This document shows, one piece after another, positions 1,008 through 26,754 of a stretch of 29,913 nt of DNA. The position numbers were made by a program, and so were the translations under genes. The stretch comes from a virus. Lineage: Duplodnaviria; Heunggongvirae; Uroviricota; Caudoviricetes. The notes under the pieces are model-generated. The model was not told the origin of the DNA and made no database searches. It saw only the letters and a program-made list of their open reading frames with translations. How positions within the stretch are numbered: position 1 is the stretch's first letter; every line of letters starts with the position of its first letter. The DNA lies in IMG/VR virus record IMGVR_UViG_2724678986_000028; one strand, written 5' to 3'.

Positions 1008-1355
1008 TTACTTATCACATAAATCAAATGCAGCCTTAGTGACATCCCCCAGACTCTTTTTTAACCCTGGGGCGGCATCATTATCTAGCCAAAATGGATT
1101 ATTGTTATCTAACGGTAACGCACCAAATGTTTTACCTTTTATTCGAGCTAAACCTGTAAGCGCATATAACTTATTATCGTCAAAATTCATCACATAAGGA
1201 TTACCATCAAGACACTGTAATTGAACCTCATCAGTATTAAATGGCCATACCCCATTGAAACTCTCACGTTCAATAGTTTTAAAAGGCATTGCGACGGCGG
1301 AAAAAGAAAACATAGATAAAAAAGTAACTAATAGTTGAACCTTTTTTACTTTCAT
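1008..1355 (-). CDS. Small secreted protein, unknown function (cargo)
   Basis: 115 aa with an N-terminal signal-peptide-like segment (MKVKKVQLLVTFLSMFSFSAVA) and two Cys in the mature part. AT-richer than the phage backbone. Only 5 nt from the int start. Family unassigned; a DUF2511/YebY-like fold is a guess only. Confidence 0.6.
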   Translation of the reverse strand: MKVKKVQLLVTFLSMFSFSAVAMPFKTIERESFNGVWPFNTDEVQLQCLDGNPYVMNFDDNKLYALTGLARIKGKTFGALPLDNNNPFWLDNDAAPGLKKSLGDVTKAAFDLCDK

Positions 1356-1384
1356 ATCATTACCTCAATTTAGCTCAAGTAAGA

Positions 1385-2035
1385 TTACAAATTAAAAAAC
1401 ACCCTAGAAATGGCACCGCCTACCAAAACCCCTACGCAGATAAAGAATATTATTTCTTTTGGATAAAGTCGGATTAATTCTGAAGCACGAAGTCGAACTT
1501 CTGGTAAGGCCGAACTCTCTGTGTGACTTGATGCCGATTGTTGCTCTAACCACGACAATGCAGACTGTAACTGAGAACGAGTAAGATCGTTTAAACGTCC
1601 TGTACCGAAATTGATATGGCAATACCGCAGAAGTTTTTGTCGAAGTCCACAGTCTTCACTGTTACGTAGTAATAAACTTACAAGAGTCTTACAGGCATCA
1701 TGATCTTTACATCGCTCAAGCATTGCATGCAGAAAACTCTCCGCTGTTTTATATTGATTTACTGTCATATCATCAATACCAGCTACACCAATCTCCGCAT
1801 GTACTTTTTGCCAAATAATAAACGCTTCAGTATTGCTAGCTTCTGCAATAGCAGCAACCAAGCTATTTAGCTCCTTACGCTGAGCCTTAAGCAAAGGGCG
1901 ATCGTCATCATCATTATTCGAAGGGATTGCGATATTGACGGTATGAGAACCATCATATCGCTCTATCTGAATATTCTTTTCGTGAAAATCACGCCCAGCA
2001 ACGCGATTGTTTGAACCGTTTGAGTTGACGGCCAT
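1385..2035 (-). CDS. Tail-anchored membrane protein, unknown function (cargo)
   Basis: 216 aa with a single C-terminal hydrophobic helix (EIIFFICVGVLVGGAISRVFF). GGGAGG RBS 4 nt before the ATG; start lies 15 nt after the repressor stop. The N-terminus carries a motif also found at the repressor C-terminus. Confidence 0.6.
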   Translation of the reverse strand: MAVNSNGSNNRVAGRDFHEKNIQIERYDGSHTVNIAIPSNNDDDDRPLLKAQRKELNSLVAAIAEASNTEAFIIWQKVHAEIGVAGIDDMTVNQYKTAESFLHAMLERCKDHDACKTLVSLLLRNSEDCGLRQKLLRYCHINFGTGRLNDLTRSQLQSALSWLEQQSASSHTESSALPEVRLRASELIRLYPKEIIFFICVGVLVGGAISRVFFNL

Positions 2036-4985: not shown

Positions 4986-7822
4986 GTGCGTTTGCATGGA
5001 GCTGGAATGAACCACGGCCAGCCATTGATCCGGCCAGATTTACGGAGCGCAGGCAGGAAACTGAAACCGACCTGCAACGCGCCATCCGTTACTACCTTGA
5101 GGCAAACAAAAGGGCACAGGAAGAACAGGAAGCGAAGGAGGAAGCCTTTTTCGCACAATCCACCGTGGGTAAAAAACTCATGGCATCCCTTGAGGAAGCC
5201 GGACAGCGTGAAAAGCTGGCACAAAGCATCATCAGCAAGCGTCAGGCAACAGAACAAGACCCGGTGGCCCGTGCTTTTGCCACACTGAAGGTGCTTCCCG
5301 TTTATCTGCGTGAACCTCTGAGCCGCCACCTCTCTTTTCTGCGCAAGAAGCAGGAAGCCGATCGTCAGAAAGGCAAAAAGAGCTGGCAGGCTGAACGCTA
5401 CGCGCGCGGAACCCTGCGCAAAATATTCGAACGTCTGGACCGCACCGACAGCCGCTGGCTGACACCGGGCTATCGCTCCCTTGCCGGACGCGAACGCCTG
5501 GACGATTTGCTTTACCTGCCGCAGCTCAACAAACACCAGATACAGACGCTGGCCACCATGACGGCGGCGATGTTCAGTGGCACTTTTGAAAAACTCTGCG
5601 ATGGCTTTGGCGCGACCGATGGCGAGCTGACCATGGATGTAACGCTGAAGGCGTATCAGATGCTGGCCCGCATGGCGTTACACCTGCACGCTATGCCTCC
5701 ACATTATGACGCTCTGACAACAGACAAAGACCGGAGGAATGAACCGGACACGGAGCTGCTGCCGGGCGCAATCCTTCGCCTGACCTGTGCGGAATGGTGG
5801 AAACGCAAACTGTGGCTGTTACGTTGCGAGTGGAGAGAAGAACAACTCCGCGCCGCCTGTCTGGTTTCCAGAAAAACATCACCCTATCTGAGCCAGGACG
5901 CGTTAAGCGAGTTTCGCGCACAGCGCGAGAAAACACGCGATTTCCTGAAAAGTTTCATGCTGGAAAACGAAGACGGGTTCACGATTGATCTCGAGACAGT
6001 GTATTACGCGGGAGTAAGTAACCCGATTCACCGTAAGGCAGAAATGATGGCCACCATGAAGGGGCTGGAACTTCTGGCCGAAGCCCGTGGCGACAGAGCG
6101 GTGTTTCTGACTGTCACCTGCCCGTCAAAATACCACGCCACAACAGAGAACGGTCATCCGAATCCCAAATGGAACGGGGCCACCATGCGCGACTCCAGCG
6201 ATTACCTGGTTAACACGTTTTTTGCGGCGGTCCGCAAGAAACTGAACCGCGACGGCCTGCGCTGGTATGGCATCCGCACGGTGGAGCCTCACCATGACGG
6301 CACCGTGCACTGGCATATGATGGTCTTTGCTCATCCGGAAGAAATCGACACCATTGTGTCCCACACCCGCGATATTGCCATTCAGGAAGACCGCCACGAG
6401 CTGGGCAATGATATTACTCCGCGCTTTAAGGTGGAGTATGTCGACGGCTCAAAAGGCACGCCAACCAGCTACATCGCCACCTACATCGGAAAGAACCTGG
6501 ACAGCCGCGCCGTGGATGGCATCGACCCGAAAACGGGCAAGCCACGCGTTGACCACGAAACCGGAAAATCAATGGCCGAGAGCGTGGAACGCGCCATCGG
6601 CTGGGCACGCCTTCACCGGGTCCGCCAGTTCCAGTTCTTTGGCATCCCCTCCCGTCAGGTATGGCGTGAACTCCGCCGCCTTGCCAGCCAGATGGCACGC
6701 AACCCGGAAGGCCCACAACGGCTGAAGGATGATGCAATGGATGCGGTACTCGCTGCCGCTGATGCCGGGTGTTTTGCCACCTACATTGAGAAACAGGGCG
6801 GCGTACTTGTTCCACGCAAAGACTACCTGATTCGCACCGCCTACGACCTCGCAGATGAGCTGAACGATTACGGCGAACAGAGCGTACAGATTTACGGGAT
6901 CTGGTCACCACTCATCGGGGAATCCTCCCGTGTGTGCACGCACCCGGATAACTGGAAGCTGGTAAGACGTAAACCGGAAGCGGAAGACAGCACCCGCGAA
7001 AATGGTTTTGACCTTCAGGGCGGCCCTGCCGCCCCTTGGACTCGTGGCAATAACTGTCCCCGTGTACAGGAAACGGACAACAACGGGACAGAACAGCCGG
7101 AAGAAAGGCCAGCACCGTGGCCGCAGCTTCCTGACGGCGTTGACGTGAATGAATGGATGCGCTCACTGAAACGGCACGAACGCCGGGCGCTGATGCGTTC
7201 GCTGCGTGACAAACAGGCAAAAAACAGCAGTGATGAAATGCAGAACTGGACACAGAGCCGCAAACAGCCACGGCCTTTGCCTGATAACCACGAGTTACTC
7301 GCTAAAGAATGGCGGGAGTCTGCTGAATCTCTCGGCCTGCATATCGGTGAACAGCAGATGCAGCACCTGTTACGGGGCGGCAGTCTGTACGTTGACGGCA
7401 GCATCATTGCACCGCAGGGATTTGAAATTGTACGCAAACCAGATACCCGCCCGGACAGCCGAATCACGCAACTCTGGCAGCGCCTGAGCCGTAATCACGG
7501 CGTAAGCAGCACGGAGATCCGCCATAACCCGGTCGCCAGCTATCTGGAACAGCTGGGGGCATCAGACCCCGAAGCCGCCGCACACCTGGCATCCACACTT
7601 CAGCAGGACCAGAACACCATGAAAACCCCCGTTACCGTGCTTTCTGACATGCTGCGCGCCATCCGTGACGCAGTGCACGCACAGAGAATCAGTGAAACCA
7701 CTGAACGCGCCCACCGCAAAGCAGACCTGCTGCGGGGTAGCCTGACCAGTGGAAACAAAAAACAGACAGAAACGGGACTCACAAATCCCGTAAATGAGCA
7801 AAAAACGTGCCGCGATATATGA
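4982..7822 (+). CDS. A: Rolling-circle replication initiator, P2 gpA family (HUH endonuclease)
   Basis: About 946 aa. HUH motif VHWHMMVF and paired-tyrosine motif SYIATYIGKN are visible. First ATG at 4982; the GTG at 4955 in the track has no usable SD. Confidence 0.85.
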   Translation: MSAFAWSWNEPRPAIDPARFTERRQETETDLQRAIRYYLEANKRAQEEQEAKEEAFFAQSTVGKKLMASLEEAGQREKLAQSIISKRQATEQDPVARAFATLKVLPVYLREPLSRHLSFLRKKQEADRQKGKKSWQAERYARGTLRKIFERLDRTDSRWLTPGYRSLAGRERLDDLLYLPQLNKHQIQTLATMTAAMFSGTFEKLCDGFGATDGELTMDVTLKAYQMLARMALHLHAMPPHYDALTTDKDRRNEPDTELLPGAILRLTCAEWWKRKLWLLRCEWREEQLRAACLVSRKTSPYLSQDALSEFRAQREKTRDFLKSFMLENEDGFTIDLETVYYAGVSNPIHRKAEMMATMKGLELLAEARGDRAVFLTVTCPSKYHATTENGHPNPKWNGATMRDSSDYLVNTFFAAVRKKLNRDGLRWYGIRTVEPHHDGTVHWHMMVFAHPEEIDTIVSHTRDIAIQEDRHELGNDITPRFKVEYVDGSKGTPTSYIATYIGKNLDSRAVDGIDPKTGKPRVDHETGKSMAESVERAIGWARLHRVRQFQFFGIPSRQVWRELRRLASQMARNPEGPQRLKDDAMDAVLAAADAGCFATYIEKQGGVLVPRKDYLIRTAYDLADELNDYGEQSVQIYGIWSPLIGESSRVCTHPDNWKLVRRKPEAEDSTRENGFDLQGGPAAPWTRGNNCPRVQETDNNGTEQPEERPAPWPQLPDGVDVNEWMRSLKRHERRALMRSLRDKQAKNSSDEMQNWTQSRKQPRPLPDNHELLAKEWRESAESLGLHIGEQQMQHLLRGGSLYVDGSIIAPQGFEIVRKPDTRPDSRITQLWQRLSRNHGVSSTEIRHNPVASYLEQLGASDPEAAAHLASTLQQDQNTMKTPVTVLSDMLRAIRDAVHAQRISETTERAHRKADLLRGSLTSGNKKQTETGLTNPVNEQKTCRDI

Positions 7823-7868
7823 AGCGCGCACAAAACAGGCAAAAGCGGGATTTAAAAATCCTGTAACC
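7760..7868. repeat. Imperfect direct repeat (two ~36-bp copies, each with an internal dyad) spanning the A 3' end and the parM leader
   Basis: Copy 1 at 7760-7795 (AAACAGACAGAAACGGGACTCACAAATCCCGTAAAT) and copy 2 at 7833-7868 (AAACAGGCAAAAGCGGGATTTAAAAATCCTGTAACC), about 27/36 identical. Each contains a CGGGA...TCCCG-type dyad. Confidence 0.5.
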
Positions 7869-7898
7869 GATTAATTAATCAACACAAGGAAAAGCGAC

Positions 7899-8858
7899 AT
7901 GAAAATTTGTATCGACGACGGCTCCACCAACATCAAGCTGGCGTGGACTGAGAACGGCGAACGCCGCAACGCCATCAGCCCGAACAGCTTCAAGTCGGAA
8001 TGGTCTGCGCCGTTCGGTGGCACGCAGCCCGCGAACTACATGCTTGATGGCGTGCGCTATGGTTTTGATCCGGTCAGCGATCGCTTTGTCCAGACGACCG
8101 ACACGCAATACCAGTACAGCGATGTGAATATAATTGCCATTCATCACGCGCTGGTCAAATCAGGCATCACACCACAGGAAGTGGATGTGGTTGTCACCCT
8201 GCCACTGAGCGAGTATTTCGATACAAACGCACAGCCGGACATGGCCAACATCAACCGCAAAAAAGCGAACGTCATGCGCCCGGTGGAGTACCAGAACGGC
8301 GAAGCATTCACTATCCGTAACGTACGGGTTATGCCTGAATCCATTCCGGCTGGCTTTAAGGCACTGGCTGACATGAGTCCGTTTGAATCCCTGCTGATTG
8401 TGGATTTGGGCGGAACCACTCTGGATGTGGCAAAGGTTCAGGGGCAACTGGCAGGTATCAGCCAGGTGTTTTGCGATCCACACGTGGGCGTTTCTCTGAT
8501 GGCCGATGCCGTACTGTCGGTGATGGCCACTAACGGTATGCGCACCAGTCACCACATCGCCAATACCATTATCGAACATCGCCATGATGAAGCCTGGCTG
8601 CGCCAGCACATCCACAATGACGCGCATTACGCCAGCCTGATGGCGGTTATTCGTGAAAAGGAAGAAACACTGAAACAACGCGTGATCCGCGCGCTGGCGG
8701 GTTTTTCGGGTTACGGGCGGGTGATGGTTGTCGGTGGAGGGGCGGAGATTGTGGCACCCGCTATCCGCGAAGCCTGCGGAGTTAATGCGACTTTCATCGC
8801 GGACGGGGTGCCACAGTTTGCTCTGGTTAATGGGCTGTACGCAATGGACAAGGAGTAA
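7899..8858 (+). CDS. parM: ParM/StbA-like actin-fold partition ATPase
   Basis: 319 aa. Actin-fold motifs IDDGSTNIKL (phosphate 1), IVDLGGTTLDV (phosphate 2) and VVGGGAE (adenosine). Collinear over its full length with plasmid R1 ParM as recalled. RBS AAGGA upstream. Confidence 0.85.
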   Translation: MKICIDDGSTNIKLAWTENGERRNAISPNSFKSEWSAPFGGTQPANYMLDGVRYGFDPVSDRFVQTTDTQYQYSDVNIIAIHHALVKSGITPQEVDVVVTLPLSEYFDTNAQPDMANINRKKANVMRPVEYQNGEAFTIRNVRVMPESIPAGFKALADMSPFESLLIVDLGGTTLDVAKVQGQLAGISQVFCDPHVGVSLMADAVLSVMATNGMRTSHHIANTIIEHRHDEAWLRQHIHNDAHYASLMAVIREKEETLKQRVIRALAGFSGYGRVMVVGGGAEIVAPAIREACGVNATFIADGVPQFALVNGLYAMDKE

Positions 8859-8862
8859 ACCA

Positions 8863-9174
8863 ATGACGACTCCAACCAGACGGATAAGTTTCTATCTGAA
8901 GCCCACCGCCGTCAAGAACGAAGGAGAAGCATGCGCCTGGCTGGACAGCCTTACACCAGAAGCCCGCAAAAGCGGCCAACGCGTGGCTTTTCTGGCCGGG
9001 CTGGCACTTCTGAAAATGAATCCGGCAGAGGCTTATCGACTGGCTGCATGGGCTGGTGATGAAGCGTTATCAGTGACACAAACCAGGACAGAACGCCCCG
9101 CATCACAGCCAGTATCAACCGCACAGATAACCAGTCAGATGGCCGGAAATATCCGGGCGTTATTTCCTGAATAA
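8863..9174 (+). CDS. parR: ParR/StbB-like centromere-binding adaptor
   Basis: 103 aa from ATG 8863, with AAGGAG 7 nt upstream (the track ORF from 8728 is over-extended). N-terminal RRISFYLKP...RVAFLAGLALL resembles the ParR RHH region; C-terminal NIRALFPE resembles the R1 ParR tail as recalled. Confidence 0.6.
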   Translation: MTTPTRRISFYLKPTAVKNEGEACAWLDSLTPEARKSGQRVAFLAGLALLKMNPAEAYRLAAWAGDEALSVTQTRTERPASQPVSTAQITSQMAGNIRALFPE

Positions 9175-9182
9175 CACAACAT

Positions 9183-9237: not shown

Positions 9238-9828
9238 ATGAGCGAAATCAACTATCAGGCATTACGTGAACGTTATTCACCTGTGCCAGTACCGAAATGC
9301 CCTATTTGCGGCGAGGAAATGTCAATTCAGCGAATATCTGGAGCACAGGTTGTTTATGCCTGCTCCGGTTATGGTGATGATGGAGATTTCAAAATTGGCC
9401 GAACTCTTGCCGACGAACATTATGAAAAATCACGCGTAACAGTGTTGGATGTCGGGGATCCTGAAGTATTGGCGCTACTTGATTGGCTGGAAACCAAAGA
9501 CAACCGAATCGCTGAACTGGAAAAAATCGCCACTGACTATGCACTTAAATTCCAGAAAGCACAGGACGCATTAAAGTATGCCGCTTTGCTGCATAGCAGG
9601 ACGGCGCAACAAACAAATAATTTTGCAGTATCGCTTCCGGACATAAGCGAATATTTCATTAATGACGTATTTCAGCCCTTGCGATACGAGCGGGATGTTG
9701 AAAGAGCCATCATAAAGGCTGGCGGAAAAGCATTGTGGCAGGAGAAACACGAGGACAGAACGCATCAGTCCTGCGATGTAAATCGTGGATGGTTTAGCCC
9801 ACTGACGACAGATAAAAATAACACCTGA
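9238..9828 (+). CDS. Hypothetical protein, Cys-containing N-terminus and central coiled-coil-like segment
   Basis: 196 aa; AAGGAG 9 nt upstream; N-terminal CPICGEEM...YACSGYG. The 3' half is AT-richer. No family assigned. Confidence 0.5.
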   Translation: MSEINYQALRERYSPVPVPKCPICGEEMSIQRISGAQVVYACSGYGDDGDFKIGRTLADEHYEKSRVTVLDVGDPEVLALLDWLETKDNRIAELEKIATDYALKFQKAQDALKYAALLHSRTAQQTNNFAVSLPDISEYFINDVFQPLRYERDVERAIIKAGGKALWQEKHEDRTHQSCDVNRGWFSPLTTDKNNT

Positions 9829-16827: not shown

Positions 16828-17151
16828 GTGAGCACCATTCAAACAGGGATCACAGAGCAGGTTATTGCGTGGCTCTTTGACCACCTGCCAACGGTGTATG
16901 CAGTAGGCGCGGCTGTCAGCATTTCCGCGCTGATGAGTCTTTATGACGGACGAACACTGGTTCAGACCGTAACGGGATCGCTGGCGTGCGGCGTTCTTGC
17001 CATGGCCGTGGCCGGGTCGCTGCGCTTCTTCGGGATCCCTGAGGATGCAGTGACGTTTTTTGGTGCCTCAATCGGTTTTATGGGCGCAGAGAAAGCACGC
17101 GACAAGGTTATTGCAATATTTGATCGCAGGGTGAAGGAGAGGAACGAATGA
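16828..17151 (+). CDS. Holin
   Basis: 107 aa from GTG 16828 (GGGGGGAG RBS 5 nt upstream); two to three hydrophobic segments and a charged C-terminus; directly precedes the endolysin. Confidence 0.65.
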   Translation: MSTIQTGITEQVIAWLFDHLPTVYAVGAAVSISALMSLYDGRTLVQTVTGSLACGVLAMAVAGSLRFFGIPEDAVTFFGASIGFMGAEKARDKVIAIFDRRVKERNE

Positions 17152-17540
17152 GCAACACATTTAAATTCAGCAGCCGAAGCGAAAAGAATTTGCAGGGTGT
17201 AAATCCTGATCTGGTGAAAGTGACCCGACGGGCGCTGGAAATCTCGGAAGTGGATTTTGGTATCACCGAAGGATTGCGCAGTCGTTATCGTCAGAAGCAG
17301 CTCGTGACCACAGGCAAGAGCCAGACCATGAACAGTCGCCATCTCACAGGGCATGCCGTGGATGTTGTGGCTTATGTTGGCAGCCAGGTGTCATGGGAAT
17401 GGCCGCTGTACGAAAAAATCGCAGCAGCATTCAGACAGGCCAGCCGGGAACTGAATATTCCGGTGGAATGGGGCGGCGACTGGAAGACCCTGAAAGACGG
17501 ACCGCATTTTCAGTTACCACACGGAGCCTATCCGGCATGA
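17148..17540 (+). CDS. Endolysin, peptidase M15-type (L-Ala-D-Glu endopeptidase-like)
   Basis: 130 aa; zinc-ligand pattern HLTGHAVD (H-x6-D) plus a distal His (DGPHFQ) and WGGDW; AGGAGAGG RBS; ATGA overlap with the holin. Confidence 0.75.
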   Translation: MSNTFKFSSRSEKNLQGVNPDLVKVTRRALEISEVDFGITEGLRSRYRQKQLVTTGKSQTMNSRHLTGHAVDVVAYVGSQVSWEWPLYEKIAAAFRQASRELNIPVEWGGDWKTLKDGPHFQLPHGAYPA

Positions 17541-17944
17541 AGCTCTGGCCCACGCTTGGCGTCGCTTTCCTTCTGATTGCCGCATGGGGAACATCCATGC
17601 GTCTGTCGTGGTCGCTGGGCCGGGAGAACGCCAGAAACGAAGCGCAGGCCAGCACCCTGAAAAGTACCGTCGACACACTGAATATCATCAGCGCCGGGGT
17701 ACAGGATATGCAGCAGGTGCTGGCTCAACTCCGCGCGGACAATCAGCAACGCAATCAGGACGGAGAGGTAAGACGTGAACAGCTACGCAACGATATTGCA
17801 AAAGATGAATGCGCCCACGCTTTGCCTGACGCTCGTTTTACTGACAGGTTGCGCAGGCACGCAGAACGCGCCACGGCCAGCGCCGTCAGTCCGGCTTATA
17901 CCGCAGACGCTGACCATGCCGGTAACGCCTCCCCCCTTCCCTGA
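17537..17944 (+). CDS. i-spanin (LysB/Rz-like)
   Basis: 135 aa from ATG 17537 (overlaps the endolysin stop); N-terminal TM segment LWPTLGVAFLLIAAWG followed by a coiled-coil-like region. Confidence 0.65.
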   Translation: MKLWPTLGVAFLLIAAWGTSMRLSWSLGRENARNEAQASTLKSTVDTLNIISAGVQDMQQVLAQLRADNQQRNQDGEVRREQLRNDIAKDECAHALPDARFTDRLRRHAERATASAVSPAYTADADHAGNASPLP

Positions 17945-18086
17945 CCAACCCACATGGGGAAACCTCGGAATATGGGGCGACCGCCTTCTGGATGCACTGG
18001 AAACCTGTAACGCGGATAAACGGGCCATTGCTGAACTGGATAAGAGAATAGCCGAACTGACACACCAGACGGGAGTAACACAATGA
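17805..18086 (+). CDS. o-spanin lipoprotein (LysC/Rz1-like), overlapped architecture
   Basis: Starts in the +1 frame inside the i-spanin and extends beyond it; lipobox LLTGC; Pro-rich mature part. An alternative GTG start at 17775 has a GGAGAGG RBS. Confidence 0.6.
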   Translation: MNAPTLCLTLVLLTGCAGTQNAPRPAPSVRLIPQTLTMPVTPPPFPDQPTWGNLGIWGDRLLDALETCNADKRAIAELDKRIAELTHQTGVTQ

Positions 18087-19802
18087 CCAGTAAGAACTTT
18101 GCACTGATTACAGCCATGACACAGGCTGAACTGACTCAAAAGGTGAATGAACATCTTGCGAAAGGGTGGCATCTTCAGGGGGAGACGCGGGTTGCCTACG
18201 AACCCGGCACCCCGTGGTATCTAATGCAGGCAATGGTGGCCGATGGCACTACAGACATCTCACCTGATTCCCCCCAGCACGGCAGCGTGCCGGAGTGGTA
18301 TTACGTGGTGGTACTTGCTGGTCAATCCAATGCCATGTCATATGGTGAGGGAATGCCGCTGCCGGATTCTTACGATGCGCCCCACCCACGCATTAAGCAA
18401 CTGGCCCGTCGCAACACAGTGACTCCCGGTGGTAAAGCATGCGCATTTAACGACATCATTCCGGCAGATCACTGCCTGCATGATGTTCAGGATATGAGCG
18501 CACTGAATCACCCGAATGCAGACCTGAGCAAAGGGCAGTATGGCTGTGTCGGACAGGGCTTGCATATTGCCAAACGCCTGTTGCCTTACATTCCACAGAA
18601 TGCCGGGATTTTACTGGTTCCATGCTGTCGTGGTGGTTCGGCATTCACCCAGGGCGCGGAGGGGACATTCAGCGAGTCCACAGGAGCCAGTCAGGATTCG
18701 GCTCGCTGGGGTGTGGGTAAACCTTTATATCAGGACCTGATTTTGCGCACGAAGGCCGCATTGCAGAAAAACCCAAAAAACATGCTGCTGGCCGTATGCT
18801 GGATGCAGGGCGAATTTGACATGAGCGCCGCTACGTACTCACAGCAACCTCCGCTGTTTGCGGCCATGCTGAAACAGTTTCGTGCGGACATTACCGAGTT
18901 TAACACGCAGTGTCATGGAGGCAGAGCGGCAAGTGTGCCATGGATTTGTGGTGACACGACGTATTACTGGAAAAACACCTACGGCACGCAGTACGACACC
19001 ATTTACGGGGCGTACAAAAACAGGGAGAGCGACAACGTTTTCTTTGTGCCATTCCTGACCGATGGTAGTGGCAACAATACCTCCACCAACGCACCAACGG
19101 AAGATCCGGATGCTGCAAGTGAGGGATATTACGGTTCGGCATCCCGAACGAACAAAAACTGGGTATCATCAAATCGCCAGACGCATTTCAGTTCATGGGC
19201 GCGCNNNNNNNNNNNNNNNNNNNNNNNNNNNNNNNNNNNNNNNNNNNNNNNNNNNNNNNNNNNNNNNNNNNNNNNNNNNNNNNNNNNNNNNNNNNNNNNN
19301 NNNNNNNNNNNNNNNNNNNNNNNNNNNNNNNNNNNNNNNNNNNNNNNNNNNNNNNNNNNNNNNNNNNNNNNNNNNNNNNNNNNNNNNNNNNNNNNNACTG
19401 ACCAACAATCAGTTCGGTCTGGGAATTTATCTGTATACCGATGTAGCGTTACCTGACGTCGTGGCGATGACCGGGACTGGTAACCCGTTCCTGATGTCGT
19501 TCTTCACCCAGACCACAGACGGCAAACTGAATCTGATGCATCACAAGAAAGCAGGAAACACAAAGTTGGGCGAGTTCGGGAATTACAGTAACGACTGGCA
19601 GACGCTGGAGCTGGTGTTCACCGCCGGCAGTGCCACGGTTACTCCGAAACTGAATGGAGTGGCTGGCCCGGCATTCCAGGTCATAAAAGACAGTCTGACA
19701 CTGGGGCTGAATGCACTGACGCTGACGGATATTACCAAAAATGCAACGTATGGCGTTGAGATAGAAAGTCTGGTGCTGGAAATAAATAGTCCTGCAGCGT
19801 AA
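18083..19802 (+). CDS. DUF1737 + SASA/SGNH-type carbohydrate esterase (NanS-p-like), interrupted by an assembly gap
   Basis: ATG 18083 overlaps the o-spanin stop (ATGA). N-terminal MTSKNFALITAMTQAELTQKVNEHLAKGWHLQGE (DUF1737-like) is followed by VVVLAGQSNAMSYGEG (the GQSNM-type serine motif of sialate O-acetylesterase-family hydrolases). The 5' part runs 18083-19204 and the 3' part 19397-19802 in another frame, because the N run has arbitrary length. Confidence 0.6.
19205..19396. other. Assembly gap (192 N)
   Basis: Uninterrupted run of n; the true length and sequence are unknown. Confidence 0.95.
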
Positions 19803-19825
19803 GGAAGAACAGGAGAGCAAAACAG

Positions 19826-20293
19826 ATGCTTAAGACAAACAGCCTCCGGAAGGGCATGATTCATGGGTGTCGCTGGTGTCAGGCCAACCCGGAAAAATTC
19901 ACCATTTTCGTGGAGAGCGGCAACATTGAAACGACCGGAGAAACGCCCTCGTTTGTTTACCGCTATCAGATGGTGATGTTTGTCATGGATTACGCCGGGG
20001 AGCTGGACGACCTCACGCTGCCGCTACTGGCGTGGTTATCCGAAAATCAGCCGCAATTGTTGCTTAATCCGGAGCGTAATCAGGACATCAAATTCTCCGC
20101 CGTTATCAATGACGATGACAGCGCCGATCTCCTGTTTACGCTCCCTCTGCGGGAACGCGTTCGCATCACGCGCAGCAGTCAGGGGGCACCGCAGGCAGAA
20201 CACCTGCAGGAGCCAAAACCCCGTCTGCCATCTTCCGAAGGCGACTGGTCGCATGTATTCCAGGATGTGACGTGGGGTGAAAGCGATGGATAA
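19826..20293 (+). CDS. R: Tail completion protein, P2 gpR family
   Basis: 155 aa; MLK..SLR, IFV..G.I, LPLLAWL.ENQP blocks match gpR as recalled; AGGAG RBS. Confidence 0.8.
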   Translation: MLKTNSLRKGMIHGCRWCQANPEKFTIFVESGNIETTGETPSFVYRYQMVMFVMDYAGELDDLTLPLLAWLSENQPQLLLNPERNQDIKFSAVINDDDSADLLFTLPLRERVRITRSSQGAPQAEHLQEPKPRLPSSEGDWSHVFQDVTWGESDG

Positions 20294-26025: not shown

Positions 26026-26598
26026 CTATTTATACAATACAACACCGCTCTTTTTAGTTATATATGTGCAGTTCGATGGTATATCTTTATTTATAAAAGA
26101 CATTGCACCTATTTTTACATTATCCCCAATTTTACGTGATAATCCAATGATGCAACAATTAGCTCCGATATCAACGTTACTACCAATTTTTACTCTTGAA
26201 CCAGGCATGTCACCATCTATCTGTCCAATGGTAGTATTCTGTCGTAACACCAGATTTTCACCAGCATCAACAGCAAAATGAACAACAATTCCAGCATGAT
26301 GGGGAATTGTTAACCCTTTTCCAATATTTGCGCCCAATCCAATTTCACAACCAAATTTGTTAATTATTTTACTGTTTAACTTTTTGGCTGCTTTCTTATG
26401 TAATTTATTACCATTAATATACATTTCGTTAGCCAACCGCCACCAGAAAAGGAAATTCCGGTTACGCTGTTTTTTCTCTCTTAAAAGCCTCCAGATATCC
26501 ATACGTTTCCGCCGAATTACTTCATATTTCCAGAAGTTTTTTAAATTAGTAGAGTCCCCAAATAAAACAAAGTGAATTGCCATTAAGTAAGACAGCAC
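26026..26598 (-). CDS. Hexapeptide-repeat (left-handed beta-helix) acetyltransferase, serine-acetyltransferase-like; candidate polysaccharide O-acetyltransferase (cargo)
   Basis: Start chosen at GTG 26598 (AAGGAG 7 nt upstream); an alternative ATG lies at 26583 and the track start at 26631. Hexapeptide repeats VKIGSNVDIGANCCIIGLSRKIGDNVKIGAMSFI and a SAT-like GLTIPHHAGIVV block. The region is strongly AT-rich compared with the backbone. Confidence 0.7.
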   Translation of the reverse strand: MLSYLMAIHFVLFGDSTNLKNFWKYEVIRRKRMDIWRLLREKKQRNRNFLFWWRLANEMYINGNKLHKKAAKKLNSKIINKFGCEIGLGANIGKGLTIPHHAGIVVHFAVDAGENLVLRQNTTIGQIDGDMPGSRVKIGSNVDIGANCCIIGLSRKIGDNVKIGAMSFINKDIPSNCTYITKKSGVVLYK

Positions 26599-26754
26599 GA
26601 TAATCTCCTTAATTATTATTTCAGACCACACATATTATAAGGTTAAGAGATTATAAAATCCTGTTGTTTGTTATTCAAAAACAATTTTCTGAGAAGGACA
26701 TACAACAGCAAGTCGCCAGTCACCTTCATCAGGAAATTGGCGACATACGTTAAA

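Follow-up and report, generated by a model that had tools for sequence, protein, structure and literature searches.

Chromosomal NanS (YjhS) of Escherichia coli is an exported sialate O-acetylesterase which is not phage-borne and carries neither a DUF1737 domain nor a lectin-like domain. It consists of one domain and is encoded in the nanCMS operon (PMC10017367). Its prophage-encoded relatives, NanS-p, have so far been discussed almost only as cargo of Stx-converting and other lambdoid prophages; all tested prophage NanS-p proteins of EDL933 and O104:H4 are active on 9-O-acetylated N-acetylneuraminic acid (Neu5,9Ac2) and mucin O-glycans, and they permit growth on Neu5,9Ac2 (PMC8065619). Here we describe a gene of this kind in a stretch of 29,913 nucleotides (IMG/VR record IMGVR_UViG_2724678986_000028; "the window" in what follows) from a P88-like E. 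coli prophage of the Peduoviridae (Xuanwuvirus-type). The gene occupies positions 18083..19802 of the + strand (ATG at 18083, TAA stop at 19800-19802) with an assembly gap inside it, and has 625 codons in its intact form. It probably encodes a working sialate O-acetylesterase of the NanS-p family, and it forms an optional cassette of the late operon in which the prophage has its head, lysis and tail genes.

The nearest described relatives are the NanS-p proteins of phage 434, H-19B and the Stx1a lambdoids, annotated as "yjhS" or SASA family carbohydrate esterase. These have the same three domains in 616 rather than 625 amino acids and, in the case of phage 434 and the Stx1a phages, are 82% identical to the P2-type protein overall (esterase domain 85%, C-terminal domain 92%). 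The DUF1737 domains are only 35% identical, and the loop between strands β2 and β3 is four residues longer in the P2-type protein. Both kinds of gene lie in a late operon beside lysis genes and specify no signal peptide, but the chassis is a P2-type myovirus here and a lambdoid phage there. The position also differs: the P2-type gene follows the spanins and precedes gpR, joined by a 4-nt overlap, whereas lambdoid nanS-p is set off by sizeable spacers and terminators. A preliminary description of this DNA had located the lambdoid and Stx phage genes downstream of the lysis genes, which is incorrect, since they are found between Q/stx and the holin gene, upstream of the lysis cassette (PMC10462455). 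The Stx2a-type proteins (933W z1466; phi24B gp84, also vb_24B_21; PDB 6YP6) belong to the same family, with the same domain order and a conserved esterase core, but share only ~50% identity overall with the P2-type protein, and their C-terminal domain is much more diverged. A 2026 preprint describes phi24B gp84 as virion-bound on a T=9 podovirus capsid. Lastly, P88 (NC_026014) and other Xuanwuvirus phages share the backbone of the window, with flanks 94-97% identical including the M15 endolysin, DUF2570 i-spanin, lysC and gpR/gpS genes; in P88 lysC overlaps R directly, and the window has the cassette at that point.

By every criterion that can be applied to a sequence, the protein classifies as a member of the NanS-p family. 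The preliminary description had read a DUF1737-like N-terminus and a GQSNAMSYGEG serine motif from the letters, and had named a profile search for SASA and DUF1737 as one check; both families were matched above their gathering cut-offs. On the intact protein Pfam returned DUF1737, SASA and DUF6645, i.e. the full three-domain layout of NanS-p. The N-terminal DUF1737 domain (PF08410; aa 4-53; 18092..18241, + strand) scores 28.8-29.6 bits against a cut-off of 24 (E about 6e-7 to 1e-6) and is of a subtype specific to the P2-type genes. It is followed by a NanS-like SGNH/SASA esterase domain, visible for aa 69-374 (18287..19204, + strand) and running on to about aa 388 within the gap. In a phmmer comparison this domain matches NanS/YjhS (PDB 3PT5) over aa 69-388 with E=2.3e-124 and ~65% identity, including the serine of GQSN and the histidine of HFSS, and Pfam SASA is matched both by the first 374 codons (aa 75-271, E=5e-12) and by the intact protein (E=2e-11). 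The serine motif occupies aa 80-90, and its Ser82 (codon 18326..18328, + strand) aligns with the GQSN serine of NanS at the nucleophile position. His368 (codon 19184..19186, + strand; THFSS) aligns with the histidine of SSHFSS in 3PT5, the catalytic position, and is invariant in four NanS-p sequences. The role of these two NanS residues in catalysis is known from mutagenesis, summarised in a review (PMC10017367). The preliminary description held that a 192-N gap conceals both the length of the gene and the catalytic His and Asp; the gap is real, but Ser82 and His368 are both upstream of it, the latter by six codons. At the C-terminus the last 134 residues (aa 492-625; 19398..19799, + strand) form a lectin-like jelly-roll domain (Pfam DUF6645, E=2e-15). 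In the intact protein aa 430-622 match PDB 6YP6, the "NanS-p" C-terminal domain, with E=3.1e-31, of which the window itself shows only aa 492-625.

A tblastn search of 50,697 phage records returned 353, nearly all Stx-converting or other lambdoid phages, in one group at 80-82% identity (phage 434, H-19B and the Stx1a phages) and a large one at ~50% (933W/Stx2a type). Among the GTDB species representatives the full-length protein matched only lambdoid-type copies in Escherichia sp. and E. albertii, and nanS-like genes in Proteus and a Bacillota metagenome-assembled genome.

The gap spans 19205..19396 (no strand), where 192 N stand in place of 350 nt (aa 375-491) according to the alignment with E. 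coli RM8385. In window coordinates the esterase halves are out of frame [(19800-18083) mod 3 = 1], with the stop in frame +1 relative to the start; since the halves are in different frames, 18083-19802 is not a single open reading frame (ORF) as written, and an ORF listing of the window gives two, 18083-19456 and 19062-19802. With a 2.5-kb query around the gene, 373 complete E. coli genomes aligned over 80% or more of the query; the best of them, which have 100% identical flanks, include O103 strain RM8385, strains of O111:H11 and several isolates of bovine and human origin. When the 192 N are replaced by the 350 nt of RM8385, the halves fall in frame as one 1878-nt ORF of 625 codons, which RefSeq annotates as a single coding sequence for a 625-aa "DUF6645 domain-containing protein" (WP_000202144.1). 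A profile comparison that is independent of the closed genome agrees: in phrog_143 (634 positions) the first half covers 1-374 and the second 497-631, colinearly, and the ~122 positions missing between them correspond well to 350 nt. What is missing comprises the last esterase helix, a linker rich in Pro and Ser, and about 60 residues at the start of the C-terminal domain. This tract is present in 6-9 copies per genome in strains carrying the prophage, and ~300 nt of it are 100% identical to nanS-p of phage 434; three deposited P88-like phage records also end within this esterase gene, at aa 405, 405 and 488. The gap is clearly a repeat-induced break of a short-read assembly with a wrong estimate of its size, arising because near-identical nanS-p copies lie elsewhere in the genome. 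A real lesion in this one isolate is improbable, and nothing points to one.

The closed prophage has the gene order of P2 (Q-P divergent from O-N-M-L-X-lysis-R-S-V-W-J-I-H-G). The RefSeq feature table lists an integrase, a repressor region and a replication endonuclease; portal and terminase genes diverge from those for the scaffold, P2-family capsid, small terminase, head completion protein and X. The lysis genes specify a holin, an M15 endolysin, a DUF2570 i-spanin and LysC. After these comes the esterase gene, and then R, S, baseplate, tail fibre, sheath/tube and ogr/Delta. When the two flanks of the esterase gene are joined they align unbroken, at 94-97% nucleotide identity, to P88 and 11 related records, in all of which lysC runs straight into R with no gene between. 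The capture of a NanS-p-type esterase in the late operon of a P2-family phage, which had been suggested from the letters, is thus supported by the structural matches, the similarity to the 434/Stx1a proteins and the P88-like backbone. Pairwise alignment with P88 is near-identical up to 18030 and again from 19874, which delimits a variable cassette at ~18031..19873 (+ strand). The cassette starts with the last 18 lysC codons and continues through the esterase gene and a spacer of 23 nt, which has an AGGAG of its own, to codon 16 of gpR. It measures 1.84 kb in the window and 2.0 kb when closed. Its composition shows no sign of foreignness (51-55% GC as against 52.5% for the window).

The lysC-esterase junction was found at ~100% identity in 376 of 5426 complete E. 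coli genomes, while in another 633 genomes the match does not go beyond the initial 41 nt of the query (to window position 18030), i.e. they have a P88-like lysC but not the esterase junction. Carriers include enterohaemorrhagic E. coli (EHEC) of serotypes O103, O111, O26 and O55:H7, sequence type 131 (ST131) O25b:H4 strains and environmental isolates. In IMG/VR 26 loci have this N-terminal domain, three of them (L030-L032, gene at 6001-7881) with a second allele of 626 aa, allele B, which is 86% identical and has the same lysC-R context.

The o-spanin gene lysC (17805..18086, + strand; Pfam LysC, E=5.5e-14), which specifies an Rz1-like lipoprotein, is embedded in the i-spanin gene (17537-17944) and reaches past its end. 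We read its start as the ATG at 17805, with a lipobox (LLTGC) in the sequence; the RefSeq start is 21 nt later, and in the closed relative the product is named "Rz1-like lysis system protein LysC". The TGA of lysC and the ATG of the esterase gene overlap as ATGA, with GGGAG 8 nt upstream of the ATG. The next gene in the late operon is the tail completion gene gpR (19826..20293, + strand; Pfam P2_Phage_GpR, E=1e-37). The reading of a gene of more than 500 codons between the spanins and gpR, beginning on the o-spanin stop codon, is therefore confirmed, with 625 codons when closed. Seven 4-nt ATGA or GTGA stop-start overlaps occur in the late genes (16625, 17148, 17537, 18083, 20277, 20918 and 21496). 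Such an overlap is the usual junction of this late operon; it marks integration into the operon and is not special to the esterase. The gene has no convincing promoter or terminator of its own: a promoter scan gave one weak site (18057-18084; 9 of 12 positions), ending on the start codon, where 2.9 were expected by chance, and no terminator-like site was found on the + strand from lysC to gpR. No signal peptide is apparent by eye in the N-terminal sequence, and residues 6-11 form a predicted β-strand of a folded domain. The endolysin gene of this lysis cassette (17148-17540) specifies an M15 metallopeptidase, not the K-type lysozyme of P2, and no lysA-like gene is annotated in the closed relative.

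Comparison with phage 434 reveals a mosaic gene. Nucleotide identity is ~55% (unalignable) over codons 1-72, 72-92% in the esterase domain, 100% over ~300 nt of the linker and early C-terminal domain, and 80-98% from there to the end. The 300-nt identical tract, at 19470-19770 of L001, lies inside the gap of the window between parts that are 72-93% identical, and is the product of recent gene conversion between paralogues of different phage families. By Nei-Gojobori estimates dS relative to phage 434 is saturated in the N-terminal domain, 0.7 in the esterase domain and 0.03 in linker 2. Between the P2-type alleles A and B the N-terminal domain has dS 0.38 and dN 0.024 (dN/dS 0.06), the esterase domain dS about 1.0 and dN 0.09 (dN/dS 0.09), and the C-terminal domain dS 0.22 and dN 0.05 (dN/dS 0.24). 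The low dN/dS in all domains indicates purifying selection and hence a functional gene. The esterase domain of allele B is as distant from that of allele A (dS about 1) as either is from phage 434. These values indicate that the esterase and lectin parts have been swapped repeatedly with lambdoid nanS-p paralogues in the same genomes, a recombination which also accounts for the repeat that broke the assembly, and that the DUF1737 module is private to the P2-type context.

The N-terminal domain was examined separately. Its AlphaFold2 model (aa 1-72; m80a6af090d53) has a β-α-β-β fold with a mean confidence (pLDDT) of 75, and the top Foldseek matches are DUF1737 proteins. An exhaustive HMMER search with aa 1-72 against 1.84 billion representatives gave only 10 clusters with E<1e-3, the majority of them small DUF1737 proteins with no other domain. 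A word-indexed protein search returned only fragments of the same protein. Among GTDB species representatives the domain had no match, and so none outside Escherichia, and a PDB sequence search with it gave chance coiled-coil matches only. The nearest cluster, 55% identical, is on a 1625-nt ENA metagenome contig (L006) which carries, in order, a phage lysozyme, a 144-aa ORF, a DUF1737 domain, an apparent frameshift and a SASA esterase; this looks like a second lineage with a NanS-p-like gene directly after lysis genes. The Foldseek matches also include DUF1737-fold proteins of the giant viruses Yasminevirus, Harvfovirus and Terrestrivirus, so that the fold is not confined to tailed phages with HK97-type capsids.

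The mechanism is most likely that of the lambdoid NanS-p proteins, to judge from their similarity: the enzyme would be made late, released by lysis, and would de-O-acetylate sialic acids. If P2 biology is a guide, the gene would be transcribed during lytic growth only, as part of an O-to-S late operon whose transcript also provides the head, lysis and R/S proteins. The 933W gene z1466 is induced together with late genes (PMC8065619), and P88 is inducible with mitomycin C (PMC5285337). Having no signal peptide, the enzyme would leave the cell only at lysis, through the action of the adjacent holin-endolysin-spanin system; part or all of it may first ride on the capsid by way of the DUF1737 domain. 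Outside the cell it would be expected to take O-acetyl groups off the 9-O-acetylated sialic acids of mucins, as do lambdoid relatives 82-88% identical to it, and the freed N-acetylneuraminic acid could then be used by surviving kin.

Several points weigh against this assignment. The gene is not closed in the window, and the 192 N taken as an exact length amount to a frameshift. The P2 late-promoter motif TGT-N12-ACA was not found in exact form in the P/O intergenic region, so that late control is deduced from gene order only; in the whole window it occurs at two sites, where 7.4 are expected by chance, and an ogr/Delta-like gene is present in the closed prophage. The acidic member of the catalytic triad is undefined even for NanS (PMC10017367), for which reason the catalytic completeness of the esterase is not fully checkable.

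Taken literally, the 192 N place the halves in different frames, as if they were separate genes, as the preliminary description allowed, or a pseudogene decaying in this genome. This is hardly credible: complete genomes align across the whole region, the best with identical flanks, the 350-nt insert and one annotated coding sequence; the two halves fall in order along a single PHROG profile; every domain has a dN/dS well under 1; and the missing tract is a multi-copy repeat at which other short-read records break too. It is also very unlikely that we are dealing with a classical moron, which a promoter of its own would keep active in the lysogen for a constitutive metabolic benefit. The promoter-like site at 18057-18084 would suit such a gene, but the match is imperfect and has its end on the start codon, more such sites would be expected by chance, no terminators flank the gene, and its start overlaps the lysC stop; moreover, an enzyme that is not exported would, inside an intact lysogen, miss extracellular or periplasmic Neu5,9Ac2. 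The possibility that NanS-p acts on a glycan of the bacterial surface has been raised in a review (PMC8065619), and the gene adjoins tail completion genes. The enzyme might remove O-acetyl groups from O-antigen, capsule or another surface glycan, either aiding adsorption or destroying receptors so that progeny do not stick to debris. We think this improbable. In its catalytic domain the protein shows 65% identity with NanS and 85-88% with lambdoid NanS-p, the tested members of which act on Neu5,9Ac2 (PMC8065619), no tail-attachment domain was found, DUF1737 being the sole extra N-terminal module, and one essentially identical allele occurs across serotypes O103, O111, O26, O55, O25b and others, which argues against a serotype-specific glycan target.

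The alternative of most interest is decoration of the capsid. Virions of phi24B are reported to contain the NanS-p protein gp84 in abundance; hexamers of its DUF1737 domain (residues 2-57) fill the pores of those hexons that lie at the facet centres of the T=9 capsid and are anchored by a tyrosine in the β2-β3 loop, the enzyme part being cleaved off later (preprint, 10.64898/2026.04.10.717836). By analogy, this binding changes what "released on lysis" may mean. The P2-type DUF1737 domain could likewise plug into hexon centres, showing the esterase and lectin on the capsid for mucus adherence or glycan editing during infection, with soluble release secondary. Besides the precedent of gp84, the same predicted β-α-β-β fold, the aromatic pair W45 and Y46 where lambdoid sequences have the loop tyrosine (the loop being the longer one noted above), and the placement of the gene among structural genes speak for this; and the strong constraint on the N-terminal domain (dN/dS 0.06), while the rest of the gene was exchanged with lambdoid copies, is compatible with docking on a P2-type capsid. 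On the other side, binding in phi24B is limited to the flat facet-centre hexons of the T=9 shell (10.64898/2026.04.10.717836). The idea that the DUF1737 subtype tracks the capsid type is not supported within the lambdoids, because the head of phage 434 is of the lambda kind (gpE/gpD) and yet its DUF1737 is of nearly the same subtype as that of the 933W/phi24B-like Stx2 phages. The capsid of P2 is, to our knowledge, a T=7 shell without flat facet-centre hexons, and we know of no decoration protein on it. There is also a passive explanation for the distinct N-terminal domain, in that conversion by lambdoid copies stops where homology ends, and DUF1737-fold proteins occur in giant viruses, which as far as we know do not have HK97-type capsids. 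We therefore regard docking of the domain in P2-type hexons as possible but on balance doubtful, and rate a shade lower still the wider proposal that P88-like phages with the cassette display a sialate O-acetylesterase and lectin module on the capsid by means of a lineage-specific DUF1737 adaptor. If true, a decoration protein would be known for the first time from a P2-family (T=7) head, and DUF1737 would be a portable capsid-docking handle that can be re-tuned to other shells, its enzyme cargo being swapped by recombination with lambdoid paralogues.

The window contains other genes of interest. A ParM actin-like segregation ATPase (7899-8858, + strand; Pfam StbA_N E=4e-82, ParM_N E=1e-68) follows the replication endonuclease, and beside it is a small "plasmid partitioning/stability" gene (~8864-9175, + strand), both within an integrated P2-type prophage; the pair hints at a plasmid-like maintenance option or at a captured stability module. 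An Ead/Ea22-like protein (9238-9828, + strand; Pfam E=1e-31) represents a lambdoid-type early gene in the P2-type backbone. A DUF2511 protein and a 216-aa membrane protein are encoded at 1008-2035 (- strand), between a repressor-like helix-turn-helix gene (2051-2455) and the integrase gene, a position suggestive of co-transcription in the lysogen, and as cargo they may serve lysogenic conversion or exclusion. A hexapeptide-repeat acyltransferase ("serine O-acetyltransferase" in RefSeq; 26026-26631, - strand) occupies a moron slot flanked on one side by the tail-fibre assembly gene and on the other by the tail sheath operon. A functional pairing of this enzyme with the esterase was considered and rejected, since none of the three P88-like phage records that have the esterase gene contains the acyltransferase, which is thus independent of the esterase, and since its homologs, at 90% identity, sit in unrelated large myoviruses.

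Among the papers on nanS/P2-like prophages and on DUF1737 that we searched, none describes nanS-p in a P2-type phage, but several primary NanS-p papers lay outside the search and prior mention is possible. A paper on NanS-p diversity makes no mention of P2-like phages or myoviruses, and a 2026 survey of P2-like viruses none of an esterase or sialic acid. The gene itself is already present in hundreds of RefSeq genomes and in three phage records under generic names. It is an ordinary member of the NanS-p family in a phage chassis for which we found no earlier description, and it reveals no new mechanism, and its main value is practical, for allele counting, annotation and assembly. The RefSeq name "DUF6645 domain-containing protein" hides this nanS-p copy, and counts of nanS-p alleles per genome, as well as knock-outs for growth on Neu5,9Ac2, should include it. 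The gene also explains why short-read assemblies of these prophages break where they do. For the biology of these phages, the finding means that the enzyme is also common as cargo of a temperate phage family unrelated to the lambdoids: the cassette is present in ~7% of complete E. coli genomes, and its carriers include extraintestinal pathogenic E. coli of ST131 and environmental strains besides EHEC. The gene also offers a natural experiment on DUF1737, in which a single pool of esterases has been combined with two N-terminal modules that differ greatly, each in its own capsid context.

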